NCBI GenBank assembly: GCA_016713525.1 | Contig: JADJOZ010000007.1 | Coordinates: forward strand, 19,969-83,968 | Length of the DNA stretch: 64,000 nt | Direction of reading: 5' to 3' | Source: Bacteroidota bacterium | GTDB lineage: Bacteria > Bacteroidota > Bacteroidia > AKYH767-A > OLB10 | In this document: in pieces, positions 8,932-36,307 of the stretch | Numbering within the stretch: position 1 is the first letter of the stretch | Layout of the letters: every line of letters begins with the position of its first letter | Notes under the pieces: generated by a model | What the model was told of the DNA's origin: nothing | Databases searched by the model: none | Seen by the model: the letters and a program-made list of their open reading frames with translations, nothing else | Position numbers and translations under genes: made by a program

Positions 8932-9198
8932 AAACTAATGTTCGCCTCAATAATTAAATAAGTGATTATAAGCGCATTACGTAAACTAACTTTGTAATTT
9001 GACCTATTTTCCAGCTGAGTGATAGTTTAGAACATTGAGTTTACACATTTCAGAAAAGAAATCTCTGATTTATTACTTTTTACGGCACATTTCACTGAAG
9101 GTCTCCTCAGTTCAAAGACAAGTAGTGATAAGTTATCAAAATTGCGCTAAATTTGCAATAAGTACTATTCATGAATATTTCAAGAATGGCATAAAACT

Positions 9199-11072: not shown

Positions 11073-11081
11073 AAAATACAA

Positions 11082-13180: not shown

Positions 13181-13211
13181 ATTCATTAATGGTTAAGAAC
13201 TGAAATATTTA

Positions 13212-14007: not shown

Positions 14008-14032
14008 TAAATAAATAAGGCACTGCTTAGTC

Positions 14033-14952: not shown

Positions 14953-14954
14953 TT

Positions 14955-15712: not shown

Positions 15713-15726
15713 ATTTCAAGGTTAAC

Positions 15727-16820
15727 ATGACAACATTTCAAAAACTTTATCAATTACCATTCCAACATGGAATAGATCTGTACTTATAACAGGTTTACTT
15801 GATCAAATTTGCGATCAAGTAATTTCAGATAAAATTGAAAATGATGTAGAACTTTTGATTTCCAATAATGGTTCAGATGATAACACAGAAAATGCTTGTC
15901 TGGCTTATAGAAATAAATTCAATTTCATTACATATCACAATAATGGAAGAAATATAGGAGCACAGGACAATGTACTAAAATGTTTTGAACTGGCATCAGG
16001 AAAGTATATCATTCTGTTTGGTGACGATGACAGAATCCAAACCGGTGCCATTAAACAAATTTTACATGTTCTAAGATCAAATACAGGGATTGATTTGATA
16101 CTAGTTAGTTCAAATTTAAAGTCAAATCCTTTTAGTGATGGTTCATTTATAAATCTATTACAACTAGTAGAAAACTTTTACTATAATATTGGCAATGCAG
16201 GTTTATTCATCTATAAAGTATCTCTTGCAAAAAATGTACTTGCAAAACATCAATTTTCTGATTTTAATAAAAGTTGGCCTCAAACCCAGTTAATGGTTCT
16301 TGGAATAGAAGATATTCACAAGTCATCATGTTTAATAACAGAAATTAAAATAAATGCTCCGGGACTTCATGAACAAGTTATGGTATATAGTTCATATTAT
16401 CTTTATCGTACAACATTTTTTGATTTAATTGATTCAATTGAATCTATAAAACATGAAATTGATCACAAGGTATATATATCCTCAAGAAGCTACCTAAGTA
16501 GAAACTTATCACAAGTTTCATTTAACATATTACAATGTGGGATATTTGTAGATGATACAACTCTTAGAATTAAAACCAGAAAACATATATTTAGTAATTT
16601 AAAATTGTTCAATACAAAAGAAAAAATGTATATGAGTTGTATTGCAAGTATATTATATCTACCTACTTTCTTGTCGAAACCACTATCAGACATTTTCATT
16701 TTCATTTTAAAAGGGCGAAACGGACTTATAAAGAAAAATAAATTTGTTCTAGCGGAAAAACAAAAAAAATCAAATCAATTGAACTCCAAATCAAATGAAA
16801 TAAGAGAATTTAGTTTTTGA
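15727..16820 (+). CDS. Family 2 glycosyltransferase; start codon ATG 15727 is separated from the main ORF by a frameshift in an A5 run (15741-15745)
   Basis: MTTFQK joins SITIPTWNRSVL, the GT2 N-terminal motif, and ILFGDDD is the DxD motif. The ORF track starts only at an internal TTG (15855). Confidence 0.6.
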
Positions 16821-16944: not shown

Positions 16945-18126
16945 TTTCAACTTTTATATTCATTATCAATTGCTAAAGGAGCTGGCACATGGAACTATAT
17001 TGGAAATTATAACGGAGGAAATTGTGACCTTACGTTTTACTTCACAATTGGACAAAAGGGATATGTTGGAGGAGGAAGAACTTCAATTTCAATTTTTAAA
17101 AGCGATTTCTGGGAATTTAATCCAACAAATAACACATGGACTCAATTAGCAGACTATTTAGGAGGTGACAAAGGGCAGCAAATTGCATTTGCAAGCCCAG
17201 TCAAAGGTTATGTTGGTTTAGGCTTTGATGGAAATGCATTCTTCAATGACTTCTATGAATATAACCCATTGACAAACATCTGGAGTCAGAAGGCAACATT
17301 CCCAGGATCTGGAAGATATTCATCATTATCATTTTACATCAATGGATATGGTTATGTTGCAACAGGGTTTGATGGAAATCCTAAAAAGATGTATGGCAGT
17401 ATAATCCTATATCAGATACATGGGTTCAAAAATAATTTTCCAGGCCCACCAAGACAAGGCGCAAACGGTTTTGCTATTGGAGATGCCGGATATATATTAG
17501 CAGGATTTAATAATGGAACTTCATATGATTTCTGGAAATATGATCCAATTAACGATTTATGGGTTCAAAAAACTAACTTCCCTTCAATACCTAGAAGAGC
17601 TATGGCATACTTTGTGATTAATGGCACTGCATACGCTGGATTAGGTTACGACAACACAGTATTTCACACCGATTTCTACTCATTTGACACAACTAATAAC
17701 CAGTGGACATCTGAAACCAACTTCGGTGGTTCAGCTCGATACCTCACGTTTAGCTTTAACATTAACAATTCCGGATATCTCGGAACAGGTTCTAATGGGC
17801 AAATAAGTTCTCCAAACTTTTTAAATGATGTATGGGAATTTATTCCAGGGTCAATTGGTCTAGACCAAAATCAGGATGTCTTTTACCAAGTCTGGTTCAA
17901 TCATGAAAATAATTCGTTAAATTTAGAATTAGAAGTGAATGCTGGCAGGATATGTATGATTAACATTTTCAATCAAAATGGTCAAGTGGTTTCAAGTGGT
18001 AAAATAAACAGCATTAGGGGAAATCTAGAATATAAAATTAATGCGAATTTATCACCTGGAATTTACTTTTATTCAATCCTTTTTAGTTCAAATAAAAGAA
18101 AGACAGGGAAATTTCTGGTTAAGTAA
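16945..18126 (+). CDS. Kelch-like beta-propeller T9SS cargo protein, paralog of 7744..8931. No in-frame ATG or signal peptide is found upstream, so it may be N-terminally disrupted.
   Basis: The frame is open from 16945 (GTWNYIGNYNGG..., FWEFNP, FYEYNP, FWKYDP, FYSFD blades). The C-terminal T9SS CTD reads ...MINIFNQNGQVVSSGKINS...GIYFYSILFSSNKRKTGKFLVK. The ORF track begins at an internal TTG, 17269. Confidence 0.6.
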   Translation, partial: FQLLYSLSIAKGAGTWNYIGNYNGGNCDLTFYFTIGQKGYVGGGRTSISIFKSDFWEFNPTNNTWTQLADYLGGDKGQQIAFASPVKGYVGLGFDGNAFFNDFYEYNPLTNIWSQKATFPGSGRYSSLSFYINGYGYVATGFDGNPKKMYGSIILYQIHGFKNNFPGPPRQGANGFAIGDAGYILAGFNNGTSYDFWKYDPINDLWVQKTNFPSIPRRAMAYFVINGTAYAGLGYDNTVFHTDFYSFDTTNNQWTSETNFGGSARYLTFSFNINNSGYLGTGSNGQISSPNFLNDVWEFIPGSIGLDQNQDVFYQVWFNHENNSLNLELEVNAGRICMINIFNQNGQVVSSGKINSIRGNLEYKINANLSPGIYFYSILFSSNKRKTGKFLVK

Positions 18127-18310
18127 TTCGGCATCACCAATCGATCATAATTTTCAATGAGAATTAATTTACTATATACGAGAACAAAGTGAAATTTACA
18201 GGGCGAGAACTTTATGGTGAACACTTAACCAAAATTTTTGATACCAGAAGTACAGAAAGATACAGATGACAATATTAATTACAAAAGTAGTATGCAAATC
18301 TAAAATTGTT

Positions 18311-19927
18311 CTATCTAAACACTGATACTGTTCCAGTCAACTTATCAATTCGGCTATAAAGTATAAAATAGTATACTCCTTCGGGCACATTCACTCCATT
18401 GTGTTTACCATCCCATTTAAATTGCTTATTATCTGATTGAAATACCTGTTGCCCCCAGCGATTAAAGATTTTAATGCTAATCTCTTCACATAGTTCTGTA
18501 TATTTTAATTCAAAAAGATCATTAAGCCCATCATTATTGGGGGTAAAGACATTTGGAATAAATAAACCAGCAATTGAATTTTCATCAATTATTAAAGTTC
18601 TCTGTGCAGTATCTGCACAGATAGTTCCTTCATTAACAATTAACATCACTTCATAAAATCCAGATTGTTGATACTCATAAATGGGGTTCTGTTCGAAACT
18701 AGTGCCCCCATCTCCAAAATACCAACTCCAAGAGAATTCGTTTAAGCTCGAATCAAAGAAATTAACCAGTTTCGTACATTCATTTATACTGAAAGAAAAA
18801 TTTGCTTCGGGTTGCTGTATCGCATTTATTTCTAAAACCTGGATAAGGCTATCAATACCACATTCATTTTCAGCAATGAGCAAAACATTATACGAACCTA
18901 TATCCTGATACAGATGTATAAAGGACGTATCAAAACTTGTTGTTCCATCACCTAAATACCAACTAATTGAATCATAGAATTCTGATAAATTCATAAAACT
19001 TACCGATGGATCGCACAGTTGTTCAACATAAGTAAATGAAGCATTGGGCATTTCAAAATTCATGAGATTCAATTGTGAAGTTAAAGTATCGGCACCACAT
19101 GAATTACTTGCAATTAGAGTAATATCATAACTGCCAGAATCGGCATAAGTATGAAAAGGAGATTGAGAAGAACTTGAAGAGCCATCACCAAAATCCCAAA
19201 ACCAACCAGTAGTATTTAGTGATGAATCATAAAATGTGACAATGTTGCTGCACCATGTTGTATCCAACGAAAAAGCTGCAATCGGAATGGAACTCGGATT
19301 AATTGTAATTTCAACTTCAAATGTATCACTTCCGCAAGAATTAAATGCAATCAACGAAATAGTATAAGTACCAGGTAGCGCGAAACTATGCAACACATTT
19401 GGAGAATTTCCAGTAGTACCATCGCCAAAATCCCAAATTAAAGTACTATCATTTTGAGAAGTAGAAGTTAAAATTACCTCCAGCTCACAATTCACAATAG
19501 AATAATTAAAGGAGGAAACCGGATCTAACGGAGGGCCTACATGAATGTTTTGGATAAATGTATCTATACATCCAAAGCTATTTGAAATAACAAGCTGTAC
19601 ATTGTAATCTCCGGTATCCGGGAAAACATGGACAGGTGACATTGTTGAAGACAACACTCCATCACCGAAATTCCAATAAGAATTGCTTAACATTGGTGAA
19701 GTATTTGTAAAAGTTACAGCTAAACCTGAGCAATCGAAGCTATAAGTAAAAGAAGCTAAAGCAGAAGGTAGCACAGTTATGGTAACCGTATCCGTAGCTG
19801 TCAAAGGACACAAACCAACACTTGTAACAGTTAATATGTAAGTTGTGGTAACTGATGGTGACACGACAGGGTTAGGCAAAGTTCCAGCTCCATTATTCCA
19901 TAAATAATTTAATCCGGGTTGAGGCAA
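18311..19927 (-). CDS. PKD-repeat protein ending in a gliding-motility-associated C-terminal domain (CHU_C / T9SS type B CTD). It is the third piece of one gene spanning 18311..21119.
   Basis: Five PKD signatures (WNFGDG, WDFGDG x2, YLGDGTTS, YFGDGGTS). C-terminus ...IPNVFTPNNDGLNDLFELKY...KWDGKHNGVNVPEGVYYFILY. There is no signal peptide on this piece. Confidence 0.75.
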   Translation of the reverse strand: MPQPGLNYLWNNGAGTLPNPVVSPSVTTTYILTVTSVGLCPLTATDTVTITVLPSALASFTYSFDCSGLAVTFTNTSPMLSNSYWNFGDGVLSSTMSPVHVFPDTGDYNVQLVISNSFGCIDTFIQNIHVGPPLDPVSSFNYSIVNCELEVILTSTSQNDSTLIWDFGDGTTGNSPNVLHSFALPGTYTISLIAFNSCGSDTFEVEITINPSSIPIAAFSLDTTWCSNIVTFYDSSLNTTGWFWDFGDGSSSSSQSPFHTYADSGSYDITLIASNSCGADTLTSQLNLMNFEMPNASFTYVEQLCDPSVSFMNLSEFYDSISWYLGDGTTSFDTSFIHLYQDIGSYNVLLIAENECGIDSLIQVLEINAIQQPEANFSFSINECTKLVNFFDSSLNEFSWSWYFGDGGTSFEQNPIYEYQQSGFYEVMLIVNEGTICADTAQRTLIIDENSIAGLFIPNVFTPNNDGLNDLFELKYTELCEEISIKIFNRWGQQVFQSDNKQFKWDGKHNGVNVPEGVYYFILYSRIDKLTGTVSVFR

Positions 19928-20032
19928 GCTTCCTAATTGAATTGATTCACCCTCACAAATAGTTTTATCAATTCCGGCAGCAGCACTGGGAACTGGACTA
20001 AAATTAAGATTGAAAGCGACTTTTATTAATCC

Positions 20033-20662
20033 CTACCCCTCCATCAACCGCATCATGAATAGTACCATTGCATTGTCCATTTCCTTAACTCCACCCAAAA
20101 TTGAAGTAGTAACATTGACAGGAAAACCAGATAATCCAGATTTTAGGATCACTCCTCCACCTCCTCCACCTCCATTTCCATGGCATTGGGGAATGTAAAA
20201 TTGATCTCCCCCTTTTCCACCGTTTACATTCAGCTGCAAATTTCCTGTGAACGAGCTTACATCTAATATGATTGTCCCACCACCTCCACCTCCAGCACCA
20301 TCAATTCCAGCAGCGATTGCCACAGAATTACCTTGAGATCGAATTTGATTACCATTCCCTATAATTGCACTTGCACTCACAAAAACAATTCCTCCACCAT
20401 CTTCACCATCTGAGCCTTCAGAATTATTTTGATAAATGTCATTACCTCCGCCTCCCCCATTAGCACATGCACCACGACCAGCTGTCAATGTAGATGGAAT
20501 GTCAGCAATACTTTCACCTTTTTCACCTCCTCTTCCGGTATTATAATTAAAAGCATAACTATTAAAAAAAGCTGAATAATAATTAAGAGAGGCATTTCCT
20601 CCTCGAAAACCTTTCCCATTCACATCAATATTAGCATTTAAAGTAACTGATCCTTGAAGCAA
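20033..20662 (-). CDS. Glycine-rich middle segment of the same surface-protein gene (frameshift-separated)
   Basis: GGGGND..., GAGGGGGG and GNGGGGGGG runs. It overlaps the upstream piece 20631..21119, and its stop lies about 100 bp before the PKD piece resumes. Confidence 0.5.
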   Translation of the reverse strand: MLQGSVTLNANIDVNGKGFRGGNASLNYYSAFFNSYAFNYNTGRGGEKGESIADIPSTLTAGRGACANGGGGGNDIYQNNSEGSDGEDGGGIVFVSASAIIGNGNQIRSQGNSVAIAAGIDGAGGGGGGTIILDVSSFTGNLQLNVNGGKGGDQFYIPQCHGNGGGGGGGVILKSGLSGFPVNVTTSILGGVKEMDNAMVLFMMRLMEG

Positions 20663-21119
20663 ATAAAGCTAAAACACCCCCTATTTGCCCATTCCATGGA
20701 GCTGCAGTTAATGTTCCCGTAACGGTAACATTTGTATAGGAAGGTACCCGGACCAATTGCAATGACCCTGTGGCAGTATAAGAATTCAAAAGTTTAGTAT
20801 TCAGGACTAAACTACCTGTTGAGACACTCTTAACAGTAGAAAATTCATAATTTCCTGAATTTCCATGATTAAGAACTGAGCCAAAATTACTTGTATTGCT
20901 AACATCAATTGTTGCACCTTTCATTTGAATAAGCAACACGGTATCATCTACACTAAAACCAGCCGTGGAAGTAACATAAAGTGAGTCAATGCAGTTTCCT
21001 CCTCCAAGCTGATTCACTTTAACATAATGATTTATCACTCCCGATATATTGGTATTTTGCGAATAAACCGGGATGCTCCAAAAAGCTAAGCAACTTAATA
21101 TGTAAAAAATCCGGGCCAT
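20631..21119 (-). CDS. N-terminal signal-peptide segment of the same surface-protein gene
   Basis: MARIFYILSCLAFWSIPVYSQ signal peptide, followed by a beta-rich T/S/N-rich region. Confidence 0.5.
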   Translation of the reverse strand: MARIFYILSCLAFWSIPVYSQNTNISGVINHYVKVNQLGGGNCIDSLYVTSTAGFSVDDTVLLIQMKGATIDVSNTSNFGSVLNHGNSGNYEFSTVKSVSTGSLVLNTKLLNSYTATGSLQLVRVPSYTNVTVTGTLTAAPWNGQIGGVLALFASRISYFKC

Positions 21120-21210: not shown

Positions 21211-22695
21211 CTATAACCATTCACCTAAAACAGCCAATCTCCATACCAGAACAGCTTTTGAATTATCACCGTTCTGATAGTCCTTAAAAATTTGCTTGAC
21301 TTTTGATTTATCGGTAAAATCGGGCAGTTTCCGGTGGTTCTCTACCAAATGCTTCAAGGGTCCCCGAAGCCATTTACTTTCTCCTGGAGTTACAAATCCC
21401 TTTTTATCTTTTCGGGCATAAATGGCTTCCGGAAGAAGTGGCTTTAGAGCTTCACGAAGAATGTACTTGGTATCCTGTTGTTTAATTTTGTCTTCATCAG
21501 CCAGTGTAAAGGCAAACTCCACTAATCTGTGATCAAGAAATGGAACCCTGGACTCAACTGAAAAAGCCATCGAATTCCTGTCTTCATACTGAAGTAATGA
21601 TGGAAGGCTTGTAGTAAAAAGCAAATGATAAAGGAAATTGTCGAGTTTAGAACCCGGCACTTTATCAAGCTGGAAAGCAGGATCATCAATGTTTGCACTA
21701 ACCAAAAAAGGGTAATAATTTTTAAATTCAAAATCATACAAGTATTGCTCATGCTTCATTGTTGAAAGCATTGATTTACCAAAATGCGAAATTGTTTTAA
21801 TCCCTGAATTACCAATTCGCTTGTTAACAGCAAATGTTTCAGTAATCGCATCAGCTAACTTTGCTTTTTGCAACATCCCTCCTATCAATCTGTAAAAAGA
21901 GTGCATATAACCGGCAAGGTATTCATCGGAACCCTGCCCATCAAGTACAACTTTGATTCCCGATTCTGAAATTAATTTCATCAAAAAATACTGAGAAATA
22001 AATGATGAACCGGATGAGGGAGCATCCAGATGGTATGCAGCCTTATCAAAATGATTCCTGACATCATCATCGGTTGGAGAAAAATAAACCGGATCCACAT
22101 GTGGATATTTCTTCAATACTTCATTAATGAAAGGTCTTTCATCAACATCACCTTTACCTTCATAGAAAATACTGAAGCTCTTGTAAGGCAAACCCTCAGA
22201 AATTTTTTGTACCATAGCTACAATGGCACTGCTGTCAAGTCCACCACTCAAACAGCTACCAACCGGTACATCACTTCTTAAATGAATCTTTATACTATCG
22301 GCAAACAACTCATAAAACCTGGTCTTCTTTTCATCAAAACTTAGGTTAGCATACTTACCGGTTTCAGGTTTCCAGTATTGTTCCACTTTAACTTTTCCAT
22401 CTGAATAAAAAAGATTGCATGCAGCAGGAAGTGCTTTTACATATTTAAAATATGTTTCATCATTATAACCTAACCATCCCATTTGCAATCCACGTGCCAC
22501 CTGGTTTATATTCAGATCATTTTTAAAGTGTGGTGAAGCTTTCAGAGTTTTTATCTCACTGGCAAAATAAAATGTACTTCCAGTATGAATATAGTAAAAT
22601 GGTTTAATTCCAAAACGATCGCGACTGACAAAAAGTTCCTTGGTAGTTTTATTATAAATTACAAAGCCCACATTCCAACAAAATGATTCACACAT
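21211..22695 (-). CDS. asnB: Asparagine synthetase (glutamine-hydrolysing) family amidotransferase, synthetase domain (C-terminal part); frameshift near 22670
   Basis: The SGGLDSS PP-loop ATP-pyrophosphatase motif is present. It continues the N-terminal glutaminase domain ORF. Confidence 0.75.
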   Translation of the reverse strand: MCESFCWNVGFVIYNKTTKELFVSRDRFGIKPFYYIHTGSTFYFASEIKTLKASPHFKNDLNINQVARGLQMGWLGYNDETYFKYVKALPAACNLFYSDGKVKVEQYWKPETGKYANLSFDEKKTRFYELFADSIKIHLRSDVPVGSCLSGGLDSSAIVAMVQKISEGLPYKSFSIFYEGKGDVDERPFINEVLKKYPHVDPVYFSPTDDDVRNHFDKAAYHLDAPSSGSSFISQYFLMKLISESGIKVVLDGQGSDEYLAGYMHSFYRLIGGMLQKAKLADAITETFAVNKRIGNSGIKTISHFGKSMLSTMKHEQYLYDFEFKNYYPFLVSANIDDPAFQLDKVPGSKLDNFLYHLLFTTSLPSLLQYEDRNSMAFSVESRVPFLDHRLVEFAFTLADEDKIKQQDTKYILREALKPLLPEAIYARKDKKGFVTPGESKWLRGPLKHLVENHRKLPDFTDKSKVKQIFKDYQNGDNSKAVLVWRLAVLGEWL

Positions 22696-23033
22696 GCGCT
22701 ACCCCATTCTTCATAAGCATGTAAAATGACTTCAGAATCGGAATGCGTATGAAACTGGTGACCCTTTTGCAGGAGCAGTTGTTTTATCTCCACATAATTA
22801 TATATTTCACCATTATAAACCATGGTGAAATTCTTATAGTGCATTGGCTGATTGGCAGCCTCTGTCAGGTCAATAATGCTGAGTCGGTTGTGTCCGAGAA
22901 AAATATGATCATCATTCCAAATTCCGGTATCATCGGGACCACGATGGTGTTGAATATGAAGCATCTGATCCAATAACCGGGAATTATCGGATGAAGGTTG
23001 AGTTTGATCGAGTATGCCGGCTATTCCGCACAT
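22659..23033 (-). CDS. asnB: AsnB-family amidotransferase, N-terminal class II glutamine amidotransferase domain
   Basis: MCGIAGI N-terminal nucleophile Cys2, then RGPDDTG and HNRLSIID. Confidence 0.75.
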   Translation of the reverse strand: MCGIAGILDQTQPSSDNSRLLDQMLHIQHHRGPDDTGIWNDDHIFLGHNRLSIIDLTEAANQPMHYKNFTMVYNGEIYNYVEIKQLLLQKGHQFHTHSDSEVILHAYEEWGSACVNHFVGMWAL

Positions 23034-23488
23034 TGGATAATCAGGTAATTAGGTAATGTGTTGATGGTACCGGAGCGCAGATATGAAGGGGTGTAGAATG
23101 GAAGGAAAGCTGCTTCAGGAAGCTAATTGCCATTTCCCTCAACTGACATCTTCGATTAATTGCTAACAAACCCTCTTGTCAACATGCCACCACGCCCACT
23201 TAGTCTTCAACACTTAATTTATCCACAAAAGTAATCAAAAACCAAATAATGAATTAAATCAATCAACATATCTCTTCTTTCTCATACCGGGCACCTCTTT
23301 TACTTCCAATTTAAGAGAATAAATCTGGATATCGAGCGAACTTGTGTGGATTTTGGTATTTAACTGGCATGCCCTTATGAATTGATAAATCGTGGGCTAA
23401 ACATCAAATAGGCATTAAAAATACGCTCGTATAAGTTGGATACTTAAAAGAATAGTCTATTTTTCAGAATCCTTTGAACGTTCTGCAA

Positions 23489-24436
23489 TTATTTCTTTTG
23501 CTGCTCTCTTAAAATTAAAAAGTCTTTAATAGCCATAGCAGGATTACCAATCACCACTTCATTATCAGCGACATCTTTAGTCACCACACTTCCCAGCCCA
23601 ACGGTACTGTTTCTACCAAGTTTAATTGCATTGCGTATGGTACCGGCTGGAGCAACCCAGCTATTAGGACCAATTTCAACACTACCTGCAATCATTGAAC
23701 ATGCAATTATCAATGAGTATTCACCAATCACAACATTATGTGCAATGTGCACCAGGTTGTCAATTTTAACTCCTTTTCCGATGATGGTATCAGACAACGA
23801 TCCTCTGTCGATACACGTATTATTTCCTATTTCAACATAATCATTAAGCACCACTCTTCCATAATGTGGAAACAATTCAATATCGCCGGAGTCAAGTTTA
23901 TTGTAACCAAACCCATATCCACCAATTGTATTGTTTGATCCAATTTTCACATAATTTCCAATGCTGGAATTATTGATAACGGTATTGGCCAAAATTGTGC
24001 AACTATTGCCAATTACAGAAGTAGCATCAATATAAACGTTGGCTCCTAACTTAACACAATTTCCGATCACAGCTCCAGGTTCAATTACAGCAGAAGGGTG
24101 AATTTCGCTAGAAGAATTTGGTTTTTCGAAATCTAAAAATTTCACACAATAGTCAACAAGGATTTTCTTGGGATTGTCGTGAAATAAAAATGCTTTGCCC
24201 TCAACATTAATGTCAGTATTCATAAAGCTTTCAGGCATAATGATCAACTTACATTTTGTATTGGCAAGTAGCTGCGTGACATCTTTAAGATATTTTACCG
24301 TTATCATTGAAATGTTAGAATCATCACATAAATCAATAGCCCTGGGCAAATTAATTTCATGATGATTATCTAATCCGAAATTTCGGGTAGTAAAACCGTT
24401 GCTTACATGCCAGTTGATGATTTCAATAAGTTTCAC
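23489..24436 (-). CDS. LpxD-like left-handed beta-helix (hexapeptide-repeat) N-acyltransferase
   Basis: N-terminal LpxD-like domain followed by many hexapeptide repeats ([LIV]G.N..I). It is 315 aa. Confidence 0.55.
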   Translation of the reverse strand: MKLIEIINWHVSNGFTTRNFGLDNHHEINLPRAIDLCDDSNISMITVKYLKDVTQLLANTKCKLIIMPESFMNTDINVEGKAFLFHDNPKKILVDYCVKFLDFEKPNSSSEIHPSAVIEPGAVIGNCVKLGANVYIDATSVIGNSCTILANTVINNSSIGNYVKIGSNNTIGGYGFGYNKLDSGDIELFPHYGRVVLNDYVEIGNNTCIDRGSLSDTIIGKGVKIDNLVHIAHNVVIGEYSLIIACSMIAGSVEIGPNSWVAPAGTIRNAIKLGRNSTVGLGSVVTKDVADNEVVIGNPAMAIKDFLILREQQKK

Positions 24437-24448
24437 AGGATATATATT

Positions 24449-25090
24449 TTAAGCTGATATCATTCTTATCAATTCAAATGATTCGGCATATTTTTTCATG
24501 ATTTGACCGCCTCTTAAAATTGCCAGTGAACGGATGAATTCAGGATTACTGTATAAACGAAACCCCTGTGATTTATATAAATTGATTGCATCAATATTGC
24601 TTTGAATATGCGATTCTTCAAGCACATTATAAACAAAGGAATTAAAACCAAAATTATTCCATGGCATTTCATATCCTAACAAATTGTTGAATTTAAATGC
24701 CCTCTTACCTTCTTCATAAATGGTTTTGTGGTCCTGATGGATATCACTTGAACTTGGAATAAACACCAGATCTGGTTTTATTTTATTCCTCTGTACAATT
24801 ATTTCTTCAAGGATTTGCTGCCGGTGAGCCGGGAAATCGCGCACTGCAAAATCATAAACGATCAAGTTTTCTCTTGGCACGCCCAAAGAAGCGAGAGATG
24901 CGTACATTTCTTTTTCAATGGTTCCAACTTCGAAACCATCTGGAGTACTTTTTTCGCATAAACTATAAACAATGATGAAAACCTCCTTTTTTTGTGCAAT
25001 CAATTTAGCAATGGTGCCTCCCAAACCGAATTCAGCATCATCGGGATGAGGAGCCAGCACCAATATTCTGTTCACTTCGTTAAATATCAT
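24449..25090 (-). CDS. PIG-L/LmbE family N-acetylglucosaminyl deacetylase
   Basis: The AP(HPDDAE)FGLGGTIAK zinc-binding signature. Confidence 0.7.
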   Translation of the reverse strand: MIFNEVNRILVLAPHPDDAEFGLGGTIAKLIAQKKEVFIIVYSLCEKSTPDGFEVGTIEKEMYASLASLGVPRENLIVYDFAVRDFPAHRQQILEEIIVQRNKIKPDLVFIPSSSDIHQDHKTIYEEGKRAFKFNNLLGYEMPWNNFGFNSFVYNVLEESHIQSNIDAINLYKSQGFRLYSNPEFIRSLAILRGGQIMKKYAESFELIRMISA

Positions 25091-25583
25091 TTTTTATCGT
25101 TTTTATTATTTGCTCACAAATAAATTCAGCACTTCTGCCATCGCCAAAAATTTGAGGAAATCCAATTACCTTGTTTTCCATAAAATGTTTTGTGCCTTCA
25201 CACAATAAATCAAAGTTATTTCCAACCAATCTGGCGTTTCCCGATTTCACCAGTTCCACCCAGGGGGTTTCTTCCAACATAATCAAGCATGGCTTTTCCA
25301 TAAAATACGCTTCTTTTTGAACACCACCTGAGTCGGTAATAACCATATCGGAATACTTTTCAAGTCCGATCATCTCTATGAAGGAGACAGCGGGAATAGC
25401 AAACAAACCTGATTTATTCATCATTGCTGATAAGTCCTGGTTCGAATCAATTAGAATTCGAGTGCGTGGATGAATCGGAAAAATAATCATTTTCTTCAAT
25501 ACATCAATCGAGTAATGAAAAAATCTCAAAATCTCCATAAGGTTTTGAGGATCATCGACGTTCGAAGGCCTGTGTGCGGTCAC
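25080..25583 (-). CDS. wecB: UDP-N-acetylglucosamine 2-epimerase (non-hydrolysing), C-terminal part; frameshift near 25560-25580
   Basis: TAHRPSNVDD then VITDSGGVQKEAYF, characteristic of WecB/NeuC. Confidence 0.7.
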   Translation of the reverse strand: MTAHRPSNVDDPQNLMEILRFFHYSIDVLKKMIIFPIHPRTRILIDSNQDLSAMMNKSGLFAIPAVSFIEMIGLEKYSDMVITDSGGVQKEAYFMEKPCLIMLEETPWVELVKSGNARLVGNNFDLLCEGTKHFMENKVIGFPQIFGDGRSAEFICEQIIKTIKNDI

Positions 25584-26256
25584 TAAAAAAGTAGTTACTA
25601 AGCGGAAGATTCAAAGCTTCACATAAATTCTTGAAGTATGAATCAGCCTTATCTCTAAAATACAGCGTATTATCATACATAATATCACCACACCGGTAAA
25701 CTCTTGGAGAATTTAACAATAAAGCAGAAGATTCTTTAATTTCTAATGAAAATCCTTCCTTTTCTAAACATACCATACCATCATCAGATGGAACAAAGAG
25801 CATTGAGGAAGTGTGATCACATATTAGCCGATTCACTTCTTCAGGAAATATTTTATTGTAAGATCTAACGCCTGCTTCTACATGAATAACAGGTATGTGT
25901 CGCTTCACTCCTACCAGGCATGCTGCCAGTGTTGAGTTGGTATCTCCATAAAGCAGAATTGCATCGGGCTTTTCAGTCTCCACCACATCATCAACGGCAA
26001 TCATTATTTTAGCAGTTTGATGTGCATGGTTTGATGACCCTACATTTAAATTATATTTTTCTTTTGGAATCTTTAATTCCGTAAAAAACACATCCGACAT
26101 ATTGGCGTCATAATGTTGGCCGGTATGCACAATTACTTCTTCAATACTATTCGAAAAGTTGGCAGCAATAGCTCTGCTGATGGCTGCTGATTTAATGAAC
26201 TGTGGACGAGCTCCTACTATGGTTAGTAATTTAATCATGTTTAATCTGATCATCAA
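25552..26256 (-). CDS. wecB: UDP-N-acetylglucosamine 2-epimerase, N-terminal part
   Basis: KLLTIVGARPQFIKSAA...HTGQHYD...LLYGDTNSTLA. Confidence 0.7.
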   Translation of the reverse strand: MMIRLNMIKLLTIVGARPQFIKSAAISRAIAANFSNSIEEVIVHTGQHYDANMSDVFFTELKIPKEKYNLNVGSSNHAHQTAKIMIAVDDVVETEKPDAILLYGDTNSTLAACLVGVKRHIPVIHVEAGVRSYNKIFPEEVNRLICDHTSSMLFVPSDDGMVCLEKEGFSLEIKESSALLLNSPRVYRCGDIMYDNTLYFRDKADSYFKNLCEALNLPLSNYFFSDRTQAFERR

Positions 26257-27540
26257 GTAATGCGACCAGTCGTTTGGTTAAGTTTTTGTAAGAAAATTGT
26301 TCAACATTTACTGAATTGCATACATTAGAATTATTTCGAAATTTAGTATAAAATTTGGTAACGGAATTTTTTATCGAACCGAAGTCACCAAATTCACACA
26401 CATCACCTGCGGCACATTCATTCAAAATACCAGCTGCATCACCGTTTGCAGGACCAATCAATAAAATTGGCCGGTTTGCCTGAAGGTATTCAAATATTTT
26501 TCCCGAAACCACAAATTCAGGATTTTCAATTCTGTCGATGGGCAACAATAATACCTGAGCCGATCGTTGATATGATTTAGCAGTGTTGTGATCGACATGA
26601 TGAATATGATTAAGAAAATTATTAAGCCCATATTTTTCGAGAGACTTTAAAACAACATCCGCCACGTTACCAACTAACTTTATTTCGAGATCTCTTGCAA
26701 ACTGAGGATCTGCCTTTTGCATCTCACCAAGTACAGCCCAAAGATCATTACAGTTTCTGTTATGTAAGAAACTGCCAACATGTACTATCGTGAATTTAGT
26801 ATCAAGTTCAGACACTTCTTTACTTGATAGTTCACCCTCAAACCCATTGTGAAGAACGCTGCAGTTAACATTATATTTCTCGCGAAACTCAGTTTGTATA
26901 GCATTTCCAACTACCAAAACAAGATTTGAATTTAATATCACATCTTTTTCCATTTGGGCATGTTTCTGCATTGCAAAACCCGACAAATTCATTTTCTTCA
27001 AATAATCCATGCTGGTCCACGGGTCTCTGAAATCGGAGATCCAGGGAATATTAAATTCCTTATGAAGTTTGTATCCAATCAGATGTGTACTGTGTGGTGG
27101 ACCGGTTGTAATTATTACATCCACAGGATTAGTTGCAAGTAATTTGCTAAGGTAGTTGAAAGAGGGTTTAATCCAGAATTTACGTGCATCGGGTATAAAA
27201 AAATTACCCCTGATAACCCACAAAAGCTTTTTGAATAACGAATGATCAACATCCGACTGTTGCTGCATCTTGTAAATGTTTTTCGATTTACTGCTTCTGT
27301 TGCTGAACAAAGTGAGCAAATTATTGGGTTCGGGAACTTTCACACGATGCACTTCTATTCCTTGTGGCACCTTTCCCAGTAAATTAGAATCCAGAATTGG
27401 GTATTGAGCATCCCTGGCAGTAAATATCGAAGGAGTCCAGCCGAATGAAGGTAAATTTTTTAGAGAACTGGATCCACCGATGTACACCTATTCCACCCGC
27501 TGGGGGCCAGTAATAGGTAATGATCAGCACTTTCCTTGGG
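26231..27540 (-). CDS. GT4-family (GT-B fold) glycosyltransferase; true start around 27540, separated from the main ORF by a frameshift in a T6 run (27466-27471 on the + strand)
   Basis: The main ORF 26231..27487 has the EX7E-type C-terminal region (GKIFEYLQANRPILLIGP). The upstream short frame encodes MIITYYWPPAGGIGVHRW, a GT4-like N-terminus. Confidence 0.6.
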
Positions 27541-27541
27541 T

Positions 27542-29974
27542 TCATGATACGGAGCGCTTATCATTAGAACCTGAATTTCGTAATTCCATAAACACACCGC
27601 CAACAAAAATCAGCAACACAAGTATGGATCCTGCAAGTGCAATTTTCTCTCCAGTGTAATAGGTTTTAGGTTCAAACTTAAATTCAATGGTGTGATTTCC
27701 AGCAGGTATTTTCATTGCCCGCAGCACATAATTAGCTCTTAAATGAGGAACAGGTTTGCCATCGATATAAGCATTCCAACCTTTATCATAATAGATTTCT
27801 GAAAACACGGCCAATTGATTACTTTGCAATTTAGTTGTATAAGTAAGATGATTTGCCTTATAAGCAGTAAGTTTGATTACTCCTGTAGAATCATACTGTG
27901 GATTAAATCCTGCAAGTTGATCTTTAAATCTTACATCAATAATTGCAGTTTGCGAAGGAACGAAATCAGTCAGCGCTGTAATTTCAGAATCGGCATTGGC
28001 AACCAGTTTAAATTCTTTCACAAACCAGGCTGGTCCAAGTGCCCCGGGATTCCTTTGTGGCAATGGGCGATTTGTTTCGCGGTCAGGAACAATAAAATAG
28101 CGGGTATTCAACATATCGAGTACAGCCATATTATTTCTGCTAATCTGATATTCGATCAATTCCTGATATCTCTTCAATTTTGCTCCGTGGTAACCACCAA
28201 TAGAGTTATGAAAATAGGAAGTACCTGCATCATTAAAAGTGCTTACCGACATATTCATCACTCTGTAACCGGGTTCTTTGTCCTGCAGTATAGCCAGATC
28301 AGCATCTGATGGCTGGAAAGGTTGTTTCGCTTTAGAAGCAGAAACAAAATTGTCAGAATCAAGATACCGTTTGTCAACTACCCAAAGATCAACTAAAATA
28401 AACCCGGCAAGCAACCATACTGCCAAATGCTGTTTGATAGTTCCTTTGACTGTGAAATATAGTACTCCAAATGCTGCTGCTATAAAGAACAAAGACCTGA
28501 ATGCATCCATCCGTAAGGCAGACTGTCTGTCTTTCAGGAGTGCTTCCAATAGCCAGGGATAATCCTTATAATTTGCATCACCGGTTGAACTGAAATCGCC
28601 GGCAAGCGAAGGAACAATAAAATAAATTAAGCAAATACCTCCTGTAATATAAAATGAGTAAAGCAAAGCTTTATTCTTTTCAGCAGGAAGAATTTTACCA
28701 TCAAACAATTTCGCTAATGCCAGAATTCCAAGCAAGGGAACTGTAAATGCGAGCAAGGAAAGAATGATAGTTACTGCACGAAATTTGTTGTATCCCGGAA
28801 AATGATGAAAGAAAAATTCATTGAATCCCATGAAATTTTTTCCCCATGAAAGCATGATAAATAAAATTGTGGTAATTACAAGCCACCATTTATACTCACC
28901 CTTAACAAGGAACATTCCCACAACAAACAGAAAAATCATAATTGCACCCACATAAGTTGGACCGGCAGTAACCGACTGTTCTCCCCAATACATAGGAGCA
29001 TTTTGGGTGAAACGCTTAGCATTAGCCGCGTTTCCATTGTCAGCTAATGCCTGGTAGGTTGCTGAATTAGGACCTAGCTCTGAAGTACTGGAACCACCGT
29101 AGAAATCAGGTATTAACAAAGTCATAGTCTCATAAATCCCATAACTCCAGCTGAAGGCATAGTCCATATCGAGACCTGTACTAACGCTTTTTTCGGTTAG
29201 TTCAGATGGTCCGCGGGTTGTATCTTTCCCATATTCATAGGTAAGCATTAATCCGGTAATGTTAGGTAAGATGGCAAGTACTGCTGCTATCATTAACACG
29301 GCTGCTGCTTTAGCAAAATCAGGCAGTATTTTTTCTTTGATAGCAAATACCAATTTTACCAGCATCCACAAGCCTATGGCAATAGCCAGATAATACGTTA
29401 TCTGTAAGTGATTCGCATAAATTTGCAGTGAAAGTGCCATGGCAGTAATTGCACCACCAAGCAAGTATTTCTTGTTAAATGCAAATATAATTCCGGCTAT
29501 GACAAGAGGTATTAAAGCAATGGCATGCACTTTAGAATTATGTCCGGCCATAACTATGATCAGATTATACGATGAAAAAGCAAAAGCCAGAGCTCCCGCA
29601 AATGCCATTTTAAAATCAATTTTCATTGATAGAAGCAACAGATAAAACCCAATTAAAGCAACAAAAATGTATGCAACAGGAACTGGTAACCCCAAAAACA
29701 GCACATCATTTACATATTTGATAAGGTTCGCAGGATAAAGAACTGAAATCTGATATGCAGGCATTCCTCCGAACATCGAGCGGGTCCAAAGTGGTTCTTC
29801 CTTGTATTTTTCACGAAAATCAACAATCTCCTTCGACATTCCCTCCCATTGGGCGATATCATGCTGTTCAATTACTTTTCCTTCCAGTACCGGAAAAAAG
29901 TAAGCAAGAGAAATAGCAATGAATGCGAGTACCACAAGCAGGTGTGGTAATAATTTCTTGAAATCAATATTCAT
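27542..29974 (-). CDS. YfhO-family polytopic membrane protein (putative lipid-linked glycan transferase)
   Basis: It is 810 aa with about 14 TM helices N-terminally and a large C-terminal extracytoplasmic domain, the YfhO architecture. Confidence 0.6.
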   Translation of the reverse strand: MNIDFKKLLPHLLVVLAFIAISLAYFFPVLEGKVIEQHDIAQWEGMSKEIVDFREKYKEEPLWTRSMFGGMPAYQISVLYPANLIKYVNDVLFLGLPVPVAYIFVALIGFYLLLLSMKIDFKMAFAGALAFAFSSYNLIIVMAGHNSKVHAIALIPLVIAGIIFAFNKKYLLGGAITAMALSLQIYANHLQITYYLAIAIGLWMLVKLVFAIKEKILPDFAKAAAVLMIAAVLAILPNITGLMLTYEYGKDTTRGPSELTEKSVSTGLDMDYAFSWSYGIYETMTLLIPDFYGGSSTSELGPNSATYQALADNGNAANAKRFTQNAPMYWGEQSVTAGPTYVGAIMIFLFVVGMFLVKGEYKWWLVITTILFIMLSWGKNFMGFNEFFFHHFPGYNKFRAVTIILSLLAFTVPLLGILALAKLFDGKILPAEKNKALLYSFYITGGICLIYFIVPSLAGDFSSTGDANYKDYPWLLEALLKDRQSALRMDAFRSLFFIAAAFGVLYFTVKGTIKQHLAVWLLAGFILVDLWVVDKRYLDSDNFVSASKAKQPFQPSDADLAILQDKEPGYRVMNMSVSTFNDAGTSYFHNSIGGYHGAKLKRYQELIEYQISRNNMAVLDMLNTRYFIVPDRETNRPLPQRNPGALGPAWFVKEFKLVANADSEITALTDFVPSQTAIIDVRFKDQLAGFNPQYDSTGVIKLTAYKANHLTYTTKLQSNQLAVFSEIYYDKGWNAYIDGKPVPHLRANYVLRAMKIPAGNHTIEFKFEPKTYYTGEKIALAGSILVLLIFVGGVFMELRNSGSNDKRSVS

Positions 29975-30065: not shown

Positions 30066-30311
30066 TTATTTAACTTCTTCATAATCAACATATTCGCCAC
30101 CTTGACCTGTGTTTCCGGACTTAGGATTTTGCTTTTGTTGAACAGAAATATGACCTTCAGGAACTTCTTGTTGCGCCTGACCGGGGTACCGCTTTTTCAT
30201 TTCGTTTTCCATTTTCTGATTCAGGTTATTGAAAGTGGAAACAACGAATAATCTAGCGAACATTCGCAGCGCAAAAAAAATCAGAACAAGAACAATCAGA
30301 AATTTAAGCAT
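30066..30311 (-). CDS. DUF4834-like small membrane protein
   Basis: A single N-terminal TM helix (MLKFLIVLVLIFFAL) and a Q/G-rich acidic tail. It is 81 aa. Confidence 0.5.
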   Translation of the reverse strand: MLKFLIVLVLIFFALRMFARLFVVSTFNNLNQKMENEMKKRYPGQAQQEVPEGHISVQQKQNPKSGNTGQGGEYVDYEEVK

Positions 30312-34369: not shown

Positions 34370-36307
34370 TCATTTTTTATTTTTATAATCGGATAAGTTT
34401 TTGGTGGCTGCAATTTTATTATCAGAGAATATAGTAATCAAATAGGAACCAGCCTGTAGTCGGTCGAGGGGCATGGTAAAAGTGCTGTTACTGAATAATG
34501 GGTTAACAATTTGTGCCACTGTTCTGCCTGCAAGATCTGTTATAACAAGAGAAGTAATTTCAAGTTCTGATCCGGTCTTTATAGTGATCTGATCACCTGC
34601 AGGATTAGGATAGAACATAAAATCGTTGGCTTCAAGTTCATCTAAACCAACACCTGTACAGTTGATTTGAGATGTGATCGTTTTTACGCAAACACCATTG
34701 TCAATCAAGAATTCCAGGTTCACAAATCCGGTACTACCAACACACGAAAATGTATCGCCAGCAACGGGTGCTCCACCATTGACAATATGAGAAACCGTAT
34801 AGGTAACTAAACCGGTCATCGGACAACCAGTCATGTCCAACACTGCCTGATTAGTGCCAACATTAACAATCGCACAGGAAGAAACATCCTGAAACACGCT
34901 ATTTATGATTGCATTGGATGTATCATCAGTACATTGTGTAGGGAAGACCTGAATACTGAAGTGTACAATTTCAGATGTTGGAGCAAGGGAGAAGAATATT
35001 GTAAAATTGAGAGTTCCGATTAGTGGAGTACCGGGATCAGGAACAAACTGATTGGGAAAACCGGCAGCGACTAAATCGGGAACAGATTGAGCACCTACCT
35101 GGTTAAAAAACTCATCATAAAATACTGCATTAAATCCTATACGGGTTGAAGGATCGTTTGTAAAATCAACAGGCACAGCATATACTACAGAATCGAAGGC
35201 ACAAATAGAATCGGCGGATGCAAATGTAAGCGGTCCGGTAATAACTGCACAATTAATGGCTACGGGGCCGTCCCATCTGAACATGGGTGCATTTAATTCA
35301 TTGGACCCTGTCCAGCCAATTTCTGCTGCAATAAATTCTATATCTGAATGGATTAAATTATCGGCAGAATACCAGGTATCGCCATCATCCAAAGTAAATG
35401 CAGTACCACCTCCGGCTTGTGGTGAAGAAAGAAAATATGTTGAGGCCGTTCCGGGAACAAATGTTAAGACCTTTGTTAAAATATTAGCAGTATTTGTTGC
35501 AACCAAACTCCAGGTGGCACCGCCATCTGTGGTACGAATAACATCGGAAAGTGCCGGACCAGGGCTTCCATTACTTGCAATACCATTTAATGCATCTTTG
35601 AAAGCAATATCGCCAATATATGAACCTGTATATGGTGTTGATGCAACAGTCCAGTTCAAACCACGATCAATGGTTTTATAAATACGCCCCAAATTAGTTC
35701 CGAACCAAAGCGTACTATCACCATGCGCAGTATAAACACTGGTAATTCCAAATTCACCTGATAGTTGCGGAGCAATATTTGCCTGCGGAGTTCTTTCCCA
35801 GTCATTACCACCATCCGAAGTAGTATATATTTCAAAGTATCCGGCATTCGGATCTCCCATGCAAATGCCATTGTTGGCATCAAAAAAGTAAACAATATTA
35901 GGGAAACCTGCTGGAGCAGCAAAAACTGCTGAATCCTGACTTTGCCAATTCACACCACCATCAATAGTTTTCATAATTTTTCCCCCACCACCAGTAGCAT
36001 AGAACATAACAGCCCAGGCAGTGTCTGCATTCAGTCCAAAAATTCCGGATGGACATAATCCGGCAGCATTATTTATGGGTCCTGCAATCCATAAATTACC
36101 CCCATCGATTGTCTTAGTGAACTCTTGAACGGGAGCCAATTGATTTGTTGGGTCGGCAGCTATTGCCCAAACAACACTGGTATCGACAGCATCAATAAAC
36201 TGAGCAAAGCGGTTTGCTGATAAATTAGAAGGTTGCGCGACCCATTGAGCCGTAGAAGCAAACGAGATGACACTTAGGATTGCTACAAGTAGTATATTTT
36301 TTTTCAT
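34370..36307 (-). CDS. Secreted BNR/Ycf48-like beta-propeller protein with a T9SS C-terminal sorting domain
   Basis: Signal peptide. Multiple S/T-x-D-G-G-x-x-W BNR motifs (TIDGGNLW, TIDGGVNWQ, TSDGGNDWE, TIDRGLNWT, TTDGGATWS, LDDGDTWY). C-terminal ...FYPNPAGDQITIK...ITDLAGRTV...GSYLITIF. Confidence 0.7.
   Translation of the reverse strand: MKKNILLVAILSVISFASTAQWVAQPSNLSANRFAQFIDAVDTSVVWAIAADPTNQLAPVQEFTKTIDGGNLWIAGPINNAAGLCPSGIFGLNADTAWAVMFYATGGGGKIMKTIDGGVNWQSQDSAVFAAPAGFPNIVYFFDANNGICMGDPNAGYFEIYTTSDGGNDWERTPQANIAPQLSGEFGITSVYTAHGDSTLWFGTNLGRIYKTIDRGLNWTVASTPYTGSYIGDIAFKDALNGIASNGSPGPALSDVIRTTDGGATWSLVATNTANILTKVLTFVPGTASTYFLSSPQAGGGTAFTLDDGDTWYSADNLIHSDIEFIAAEIGWTGSNELNAPMFRWDGPVAINCAVITGPLTFASADSICAFDSVVYAVPVDFTNDPSTRIGFNAVFYDEFFNQVGAQSVPDLVAAGFPNQFVPDPGTPLIGTLNFTIFFSLAPTSEIVHFSIQVFPTQCTDDTSNAIINSVFQDVSSCAIVNVGTNQAVLDMTGCPMTGLVTYTVSHIVNGGAPVAGDTFSCVGSTGFVNLEFLIDNGVCVKTITSQINCTGVGLDELEANDFMFYPNPAGDQITIKTGSELEITSLVITDLAGRTVAQIVNPLFSNSTFTMPLDRLQAGSYLITIFSDNKIAATKNLSDYKNKK

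Follow-up and report, generated by a model that had tools for sequence, protein, structure and literature searches.

We analysed a stretch of 64,000 nucleotides (the window) from contig JADJOZ010000007.1 of a Bacteroidota bacterium, focusing on six co-directional minus-strand genes that fill positions 21211-29974. With moderate confidence, we read these genes as a nested envelope-glycan locus, in which an amino sugar would be deacetylated, re-N-acylated and built into a cell-surface glycan. At the core of the locus is a mobile gene pair encoding a PIG-L-family deacetylase and a paralogue of the acyltransferase LpxD; the pair sits in a four-gene cassette, and the cassette sits in a conserved slot. 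Each family label is backed by profile searches, which confirm the six gene families that an initial annotation had placed here, all of them on the minus strand. Along the forward numbering the genes run, 3' to 5', as AsnB-like, LpxD-like, PIG-L, WecB, GT4, YfhO-like, DUF4834 and carB, with the following features in and beside the module.

21211..23033, minus strand: long AsnB-type glutamine amidotransferase (Asn_synthase plus GATase_6/7), 607 amino acids when intact, right flank of the slot
23457..24436 (listed open reading frame, ORF, 23489-24436), minus strand: LpxD-paralogue N-acyltransferase with an LpxD-like N-domain, a left-handed β-helix and a short C-terminal helix
24449..25090, minus strand: LmbE/PIG-L-family zinc-dependent de-N-acetylase of a compact, distinct subfamily, 213 amino acids, PF02585 at 68.7 bits
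25080..26256, minus strand: WecB, non-hydrolysing UDP-GlcNAc 2-epimerase (Epimerase_2), present as two half ORFs
26231..27545 (26231-27487 in the gene table), minus strand: retaining GT4-family glycosyltransferase (GT), approximately 437 amino acids, weak Pfam GT4 match
27542..29974, minus strand: YfhO-like polytopic membrane protein, GT-C-type candidate, PF09586 at 49.6 bits, left flank of the slot
30066..30311, minus strand: DUF4834 small single-pass membrane protein, 81 amino acids, PF16118 at 25.2 bits, just under gathering

The stop codon of the YfhO-like gene overlaps the start of the GT gene (ATG at 27545) as ATGA, which couples the two genes and supports our reading of the locus. A 456-bp spacer (23034-23488) lies between the LpxD-like gene and the AsnB gene, compared with 424 bp in locus L001 and 113 bp in locus L002. 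It holds no credible ORF and gave no Rfam match at E ≤ 1, nor did the whole window give any Rfam match at gathering thresholds. The AsnB gene may have its own promoter in the window's lineage. A scan for sigma-70 promoters and terminators, using a model unsuited to Bacteroidota promoters, returned counts equal to the shuffled expectation; as this is uninformative, operon structure is judged from gene spacing. The clustering itself is not due to chance, since the adjacency of the PIG-L and LpxD-like genes recurs across phyla.

A deacetylase gene and its exchangeable neighbour

The PIG-L protein scores well above the 28.2-bit gathering threshold of its Pfam model and carries the metal motif HPDD...HQDH, in which H15, D17, D18 and H118-Q-D-H121 do not vary among orthologues drawn from four phyla. 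Its subfamily comprises at least 408 clusters at 50% identity (E ≤ 1e-30) and spans at least three bacterial phyla. A role in bacillithiol (BshA/BshB) synthesis was rejected on a score of 62.3 bits against the BshB1 model TIGR04001, below the equivalog cutoff of 182.5.

To describe the neighbourhood of this gene we used 93 loci with PIG-L orthologues (44-99% identity), drawn from species genomes, metagenomes and exact-protein look-ups, and clustered the neighbouring ORFs. Dereplication at 90% PIG-L identity left 37 loci flanked by 1.5 kb or more on either side. In 21 of these 37, the gene directly downstream of PIG-L, on the same strand, is that of the LpxD paralogue; this count, like the others given here, draws on short contigs from metagenomes and on ORF clusters built by single linkage. 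The same downstream position is taken by an ATP-grasp ligase (PF15632/PF02655) in six loci and by a WbqC-like protein (PF08889) in three, and overall a candidate amide-forming enzyme stands next to PIG-L in 30/37. The PIG-L/LpxD-like pair occurs in Bacteroidota, Smithella and Longimicrobium. One protein of the representative library, P0386 (397 amino acids), is a GNAT domain (Acetyltransf_3) fused to a member of the PIG-L subfamily, with 45% identity to the window PIG-L and 57% to that of locus L136. This fusion is a Rosetta-stone link between the predicted activities of deacetylation and re-acylation. Another apparent PIG-L fusion, P0492, proved to be an artefact, with a tail of low-complexity Arg/Ala read-through.

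These data support the view that PIG-L and the LpxD-like protein form a conserved functional couple in which the acylating partner is exchangeable. A constant deacetylase beside a variable N-acylating partner fits a couple that strips an N-acetyl group and adds another N-substituent, and the mirroring of LpxC/LpxD that had been suggested from the window alone is thereby upheld by the recurrent adjacency, the partner swaps and the GNAT fusion. NCBIfam holds no model specific to either protein, and we found no description of the PIG-L and LpxD-paralogue couple in the literature.

Two variations on the arrangement were also seen. On some non-Bacteroidota-like contigs (L097, L104, L110 and L145), PIG-L lies between two hexapeptide/LpxD-like genes, with DegT and Gfo/Idh/MocA genes near; this suggests a 2,3-diamino sugar with two different N-acyl groups. 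On the 2.27-Mb contig L086, a second Epimerase_2 paralogue (8897-9979; 360 amino acids, 31-43% identical to WecB) stands in for PIG-L between WecB and the LpxD paralogue.

Nested organisation of the locus

The genes around the pair form two further layers. The inner layer is the cassette GT4-WecB-PIG-L-LpxD-like, which recurs in Cryomorpha ignava and in Crocinitomicaceae, where in one metagenome-assembled genome (MAG) it stands alone amid unrelated housekeeping genes; in Cyclobacteriaceae-like contigs the same four genes are rearranged. The outer layer is a slot, in which the order here is carB-DUF4834-YfhO-[slot]-AsnB, with the four-gene cassette inside. In loci L171-L174 we see carB-DUF4834-YfhO-GT(-WecB)-AsnB, with PIG-L and the LpxD-like gene both absent. 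Across these four loci the GT is 38-41% identical to that of the window, and YfhO 57-78%. For L171 (5512-7963, against window 25080-27545), identity is 78% for YfhO and 92% for CarB, compared with 38% for the GT and 42-53% for WecB, which indicates conserved flanks around a variable interior. On this sequence pattern the slot resembles a hypervariable glycan locus of the serotype type. In L103 and L144 the PIG-L/LpxD-like pair occupies the same slot, inverted and without WecB. In Tenacibaculum ovolyticum, DUF4834-YfhO is found near an orthologue of the GT and a further GT4, along with two 2-epimerases and a Wzx flippase. In L173 (9855-11573), the gene after AsnB is C5-epimerase-like (PF06662), and beyond it come a SIS gene, a CTP-transferase/PfkB fusion, an NAD-epimerase and methyltransferases, which hints that the downstream side of the slot is able to hold sugar-modifying genes.

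Among the 14 dereplicated, well-flanked loci that contain the LpxD-like gene, a GT is present in all (14/14), WecB in five, YfhO in four, DegT in four and AsnB in three. The low co-occurrence of YfhO and AsnB with the pair indicates that these two genes belong to the slot and not to the pair. The locus is thus a mobile PIG-L/LpxD-like pair in a four-gene cassette in a conserved slot. The initial annotation had treated all six genes as one module for an N-acylated glycan; the constant GT4 and the recurrence of WecB and YfhO bear out part of this, while the nesting, with AsnB and YfhO as slot genes, does not fit a single unit.

At the left flank, the YfhO-like protein passes the 28.5-bit cutoff of its Pfam model, which is Firmicute-based and aligned over residues 700-775 alone. 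Weak PgfM1 and PgfM2 matches were also recorded, and a comparison with PDB sequences gave no meaningful match. Its predicted topology, with approximately 12 hydrophobic segments, a soluble region spanning 534-777 and a last transmembrane segment at the C-terminus, makes it a candidate GT-C-type periplasmic transferase. DUF4834, a protein with a single hydrophobic helix near its N-terminus and an acidic, Tyr-rich tail at its C-terminus, is encoded directly upstream of YfhO in L002, L171 (2815-2994), L172, L174 (2710-2949) and the Tenacibaculum locus L176 (2476-2757), and might work with the candidate GT-C enzyme as a subunit or partner. A literature search on YfhO in Bacteroidota and on WbqC, PIG-L and ATP-grasp proteins gave nothing relevant beyond the LmbE review cited in the next section.

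Proposed pathway and order of the steps

The two remaining cassette genes would supply and transfer the sugar. The halves of the window WecB match Epimerase_2 positions 7-169 and 186-346, and score 148.8 and 82.6 bits against TIGR00236 (cutoff 210), for which the intact orthologue from L002 reaches 239.2. Intact WecB orthologues have 385-386 amino acids, and that of L002 is 81-85% identical to the window protein. The window copy of the GT alone falls under the Pfam GT4 gathering threshold; its homologues are annotated as GT4 with PF13439, PF00534 and PF13692, and the family reaches cultured Flavobacteriaceae. A profile of the GT found no match among PDB sequences at E ≤ 1. Its AlphaFold2 (AF2) model shows a GT-B fold, with a predicted local distance difference test score (pLDDT) of 86.5 and a predicted TM-score of 0.84, and the best Foldseek matches are MshA, GlgM and BshA (retaining GT4 enzymes, E ~1e-13), followed by glycogen synthase, PimB' and WaaG. 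By fold and homologues, we therefore assign the GT as a predicted retaining GT4 enzyme.

In the pathway that we propose, WecB would convert UDP-GlcNAc to UDP-ManNAc, PIG-L would remove the 2-N-acetyl group of the hexosamine, and the LpxD paralogue would put a new acyl group, delivered by an acyl carrier, on the amine thus exposed; if LpxD is a guide, this would be an (R)-3-hydroxyacyl group. GT4 would then place the sugar on an acceptor, the YfhO-like protein would transfer the lipid-linked product in the periplasm, and the AsnB-like protein would amidate a carboxylate of the same glycan or its precursor. We infer the substrates, the step order, the acyl donor, the final acceptor and the AsnB substrate from the gene families and their arrangement. 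We prefer modification at the level of the UDP-sugar, in the manner of LpxC/LpxD, before transfer by GT4, because the LpxD paralogue appears to have an LpxD-type N-domain, because the pair is also found beside the nucleotide-sugar enzymes DegT and Gfo/Idh/MocA, and because in L084 and L085 it occurs with no GT orthologue nearby.

A tentative alternative, to which we give clearly less weight, follows the order of mycothiol, bacillithiol and glycosylphosphatidylinositol (GPI) synthesis: GT4 would first put GlcNAc or ManNAc on a lipid or small molecule, PIG-L would deacetylate the glycoside, and the LpxD paralogue would N-acylate the resulting HexN-X. The product, equally tentative, would then be an N-acyl-hexosaminyl glycolipid or glycoconjugate. 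The LmbE deacetylases MshB and BshB receive their substrates from the transferases MshA and BshA, and both transferases are among the best matches of the GT model, for which a family member accompanies the pair in every one of the 14 loci counted above. Nevertheless, by Foldseek score MshA and BshA hardly stand out from GlgM, glycogen synthase, WaaG and other GT4-type matches. The LpxD-type N-domain that the paralogue appears to keep also speaks for the UDP-sugar route, as this domain binds the UDP moiety in LpxD, and so does the placement of the pair among nucleotide-sugar-modifying genes, or away from any GT orthologue. The substrates of related deacetylases also support the alternative: MshB, BshB, PIG-L and the teicoplanin deacetylase use glycosides made by a preceding GT (PMC4101496), and the diacetylchitobiose deacetylases among the PDB matches likewise act on glycosides.

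Several observations weigh against the reading of a nested N-acyl-glycan locus with UDP-sugar-level modification. The characterised LmbE-family enzymes covered by the same review act on glycosides and not on nucleotide sugars (PMC4101496). WecB, YfhO and AsnB are facultative neighbours of the pair, at the frequencies given above, and carB is co-conserved with the slot, so the synteny is possibly inherited in part and not functional. The module encodes no uronate-forming dehydrogenase and no flippase. For the window LpxD-like protein itself, Pfam LpxD_N (PF04613) gave no match, though some homologues do match; the N-domain motifs (ITF..KY, NP) are partly kept in LpxD-like proteins; the β-helix of the AF2 model is poor (pLDDT 40-65); and the neighbour-joining tree described below carries no support values.

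The AsnB-type amidotransferase

The window AsnB had been suggested to be a glycan amidotransferase of the WbpS/PseA type, acting on sugar uronates. Its glycan context is supported, in that three further lineages have orthologues of 60-65% identity placed directly after YfhO-GT(-WecB), at distances of 4-103 bp. The suggested type is not: the intact orthologue scores 384.8 bits against TIGR03108 (eps_aminotran_1, the family of WbpS, WbqG and PGN_1234), far below the cutoff of 816.9, and, with no dehydrogenase in the module to supply a uronate, amidation of a uronate is not borne out either. The same orthologue passes the generic asparagine synthase model TIGR01536 (476 bits, cutoff 267) and falls short of the E. 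coli-type AsnB model NF006949 (290.2 bits, cutoff 499). The SGGLDSS PP-loop is conserved, as are the glutaminase residues and the Cys2 nucleophile, and among solved relatives the hydroxyamidotransferase 7YLZ ranks first, before E. coli AsnB.

The protein has a Gln in the motif GQG[SA]DE (GQGSDE in the window), found in 119/120 top homologues. Glu stands at this position in E. coli AsnB (1CT9), human ASNS (6GQ3) and 7YLZ (G-E-G/A), and AsnB paralogues of other polysaccharide loci have L, D, A or E. We take this to be the position of Glu348 of the GEGSDE motif, which is reportedly essential for the formation of β-aspartyl-AMP. The Gln in the GQG motif, together with the steady place of the gene after a GT or WecB, favours a predicted substrate other than asparagine.

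It is possible, if less probable, that this AsnB is a housekeeping asparagine synthetase that stands beside glycan genes through inherited synteny, as carB does. The generic model and the conserved glutaminase and PP-loop motifs are compatible with such a role, as are the failed WbpS-family model, the co-conservation of carB in the block, an orthologue (57% identity) in an unrelated context in L175 and the 456-bp gap to the LpxD-like gene here. The near-universal replacement of Glu by Gln and the failed E. coli-type model argue the other way. In addition, the position after GT or WecB survives both replacement of the cassette and inversion of the pair, and a long AsnB homologue has a precedent in the glycosylation cluster of Tannerella forsythia (PMC6120980). 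We retain a glycan-related amidotransferase as the preferred reading.

An LpxD paralogue probably outside lipid A synthesis

The window LpxD-like protein contains Hexapep repeats and scores 207.9 bits against NF002060, just over the cutoff of 207. Proteins of this type straddle that cutoff (199-244 bits), which results in inconsistent database names; these waver between "LpxD", "DapH/DapD/GlmU-related" and "hypothetical". Against the LpxD equivalog model TIGR01853 (cutoff 242.5), the window protein scores 193.5 and four intact orthologues 193, 197, 209 and 221, compared with 436.6 for E. coli LpxD. The initial label of an LpxD-like acyltransferase, to be checked with hidden Markov models (HMMs), thus holds for the hexapeptide region and NF002060, and does not extend to Pfam LpxD_N or to the equivalog cutoff. 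LpxD HMMs do align through the N-domain in some members. Identity is 31% overall to E. coli LpxD, and 41-48% locally over the β-helix to other LpxD-type genes.

Sequence matches among solved structures list LpxDs first (E ~1e-29) and then LpxAs. The AF2 model has a mean pLDDT of 73, with an N-domain above 86, and the top 25 Foldseek matches are all LpxD over the full length, at TM-scores of only 0.3-0.42. In an alignment with E. coli LpxD, the equivalents of the catalytic H239 and of D232, N233 and G257 are invariant in the LpxD-like proteins. In the PIG-L-linked family, Asn or Gln replaces the equivalent of H276, whereas one canonical Flavobacteriaceae LpxD keeps His.

For the tree, a contig profile search with the LpxD-like alignment supplied an outgroup, as the matches listed were mostly canonical LpxDs, plus loci L004-L006, L011 and L012. 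In the neighbour-joining tree, the PIG-L-linked proteins form a clade of their own, separate from those LpxDs whose genes neighbour lpxA, Bacteroidota examples included. None of 40 linked loci has lpxA, lpxB or fabZ beside the LpxD-like gene, and lpxD, lpxA and lpxC are absent from the rest of the 64-kb window. LpxD-like genes were also seen on Nitrososphaeraceae/Nitrosocosmicus MAG contigs (L010, L014 and L019), with products 35-41% identical to the window protein; in the tree, these proteins of ammonia-oxidising archaea are nearer to the PIG-L-linked proteins than to canonical LpxDs.

Together, the profile scores, residues, tree and neighbourhoods support a predicted LpxD paralogue that is not a lipid A enzyme. 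We consider it improbable that the protein is instead a second lipid A LpxD (LpxD2-type) that alters N-linked acyl chains, with PIG-L replacing LpxC. Its resemblance to E. coli LpxD, the kept catalytic His, the scores near the NF002060 cutoff and the name LpxD in some databases are what this idea would explain. It is hard to reconcile with the failed equivalog model, the separate clade, the lost H276 equivalent and the lack of lipid A gene neighbours. Moreover, PIG-L is found paired with ATP-grasp, WbqC and GNAT proteins too, and related genes occur in archaea, which to our knowledge are not expected to make lipid A.

Frameshifts and assembly quality

Several of the genes discussed are interrupted in the window. 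AsnB is broken by a 1-nucleotide deletion at 22662 (T3 instead of T4) and WecB by a 1-nucleotide insertion at 25585 (T6 instead of T5), each giving two overlapping ORFs. The GT N-terminus, MNPRKVLIITYYWPPAGG, is in another frame owing to a 1-nucleotide homopolymer frameshift near 27462, and a 1-nucleotide deletion at 23495 cuts the C-terminus of the LpxD-like protein, from 326 to 315 amino acids. An exact-sequence look-up of the window LpxD-like protein returned no record; the ORF is shortened by this indel. An indel is also carried by carB, at 32634. Further split ORFs were seen at 20033-20662 plus 20631-21119, and as transketolase-like pieces at 13534-14952.

MAG contig JADKHQ010000001.1 (GCA_016721705.1, "Bacteroidetes bacterium"), our locus L001, matches the window at 99% identity, or 96.5% in the second aligned block; the part of the window compared is 13653-34439. 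Nearly all differences between the two are indels of one, occasionally two, nucleotides at homopolymers or short repeats, chiefly 1-nucleotide homopolymer indels, with 11 in the first 13.8 kb aligned. In L001, AsnB (607 amino acids) and WecB (385 amino acids) are intact while the GT and YfhO are broken. Since the breaks are reciprocal between the assemblies, lie at homopolymers and also hit the housekeeping gene carB, those in AsnB, WecB and the GT are most likely consensus errors and not gene decay, and gene calls in the window need frameshift-aware handling. That the frameshifts are real and the module is decaying into pseudogenes is very improbable: three frameshifts and one C-terminal change do fall within 8.7 kb, but each assembly breaks different genes, the indels spread over housekeeping genes, and the broken ORFs are otherwise free of stops or decay and 99-100% identical to intact orthologues.

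Comparison with known systems

One chemical parallel is the LpxC/LpxD step of the Raetz pathway, in which the 2-amine of a UDP-hexosamine is exposed by a zinc deacetylase and then re-acylated from acyl-ACP by a trimeric β-helix N-acyltransferase. Our system differs in that an LmbE/PIG-L protein replaces LpxC, no 3-O-acylation is implied, the neighbours are GT4, WecB and YfhO and not lpxA, fabZ and lpxB, and the H276 equivalent is lost. The same logic of deacetylation and re-acylation is used by NodB and NodA in Nod factor synthesis. In MshA/MshB, BshA/BshB and PIG-A/PIG-L, a GT4 UDP-GlcNAc transferase is joined by an LmbE/PIG-L deacetylase, after which the amine is derivatised; our cassette has the same two families, but here the third enzyme is an LpxD paralogue and not a Cys ligase, and WecB and a GT-C protein are attached.

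In the teicoplanin and A40926 pathways, an LmbE-family deacetylase (Orf2*/Dbv21) strips the acetyl group of GlcNAc for fatty acyl attachment (PMC4101496), although this is actinomycete secondary metabolism with an unrelated acyltransferase and a glycopeptide pseudoaglycone as substrate. The Wbp/Vim pathway of Porphyromonas gingivalis and T. forsythia makes the linking sugar for type IX secretion system (T9SS) cargo, and comprises the deacetylase VimE (CE4), the transferase VimA (FemAB-like), the GT4 enzyme VimF, the AsnB-type protein WbpS and a predicted epimerase, with WbpS and WbqG assigned to the TIGR03108 family (PMC7468200). In logic it comes especially near to our proposed pathway, with which it shares the removal of the 2-N-acetyl group and the placing of another group on the amine, as well as a GT4, an AsnB-type protein and an epimerase, in T9SS-bearing Bacteroidota. 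However, VimE and VimA are not homologous to PIG-L and LpxD, our AsnB falls outside the WbpS family, and the WbpA, WbpB, WbpE and WbpD genes are absent from the module, so the likeness is one of logic only.

The protein O-glycosylation cluster of T. forsythia contains wecB, wecC, an asnB homologue of ~605 amino acids, GT-B glycosyltransferases and wzx (PMC6120980). Its combination of wecB, a long asnB and a GT in a member of the Bacteroidota resembles ours, with the AsnBs compared by description only, and the Tenacibaculum relative of our slot also has Wzx. The T. forsythia cluster differs in having wecC and in lacking PIG-L, the LpxD paralogue and YfhO. Finally, the CsbB/YfhO and Pgf (PgfS/PgfE/PgfM1/PgfM2) systems of Firmicutes likewise place a YfhO-type protein beside a cytoplasmic GT and a sugar epimerase. 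Here, ~80 C-terminal residues match the YfhO model, the transferase is GT4 and not GT2, and the host is Gram-negative. Deacetylate-and-re-acylate logic is thus known from lipid A, Nod factors, teicoplanin and Wbp/Vim, and the version built on PIG-L and an LpxD paralogue is new as far as we found.

Genomic surroundings and implications

The module is surrounded by T9SS cargo genes (window 17269-21119, 34370-36307 and 766-6559), with PKD and CHU_C domains and with Kelch/BNR repeats and Por_Secre_tail, and such genes also surround the L171-L174 loci. These surroundings may be coincidental in a T9SS-rich genome; they are of note since the analogous system of P. gingivalis builds the T9SS cargo anchor sugar. 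Elsewhere in the window, 9199-16820 on the plus strand encodes an NTP_transferase and an epimerase/dehydratase of the 4,6-dehydratase type, together with a C-methyltransferase that has a zinc domain (Methyltransf_13/14), a transketolase present as separate N, pyrimidine-binding and C parts, and a GT2. This looks like a separate pathway for a branched-chain or C-methylated deoxysugar.

The slot draws attention to a conserved candidate GT-C enzyme in a phylum that has yet to yield its periplasmic glycan transferases; according to a 2025 review, the oligosaccharyltransferase, the ligase and the core-glycan flippase of Bacteroidota remain undiscovered (PMC12871550). We raise as a long shot that the DUF4834-linked YfhO-like GT-C enzyme is one of the missing periplasmic transferases of Bacteroidota surface glycosylation, whether an O-oligosaccharyltransferase, an outer-glycan ligase or an enzyme for the anchor glycan of T9SS cargo or lipopolysaccharide. 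If so, in the window's lineage the pair would give that glycan an N-(3-hydroxy)acyl hexosamine, a use of LpxD chemistry independent of lipid A.

More generally, PIG-L would act as a plug-in module, with its partner (LpxD-like, ATP-grasp, WbqC or GNAT) setting the N-substituent of the amino sugar. Annotations of "LpxD" beside PIG-L genes are, on this evidence, probably not lipid A enzymes, and the identity of the partner would offer a simple way to predict from genomes how N-acyl groups vary among bacterial glycans.

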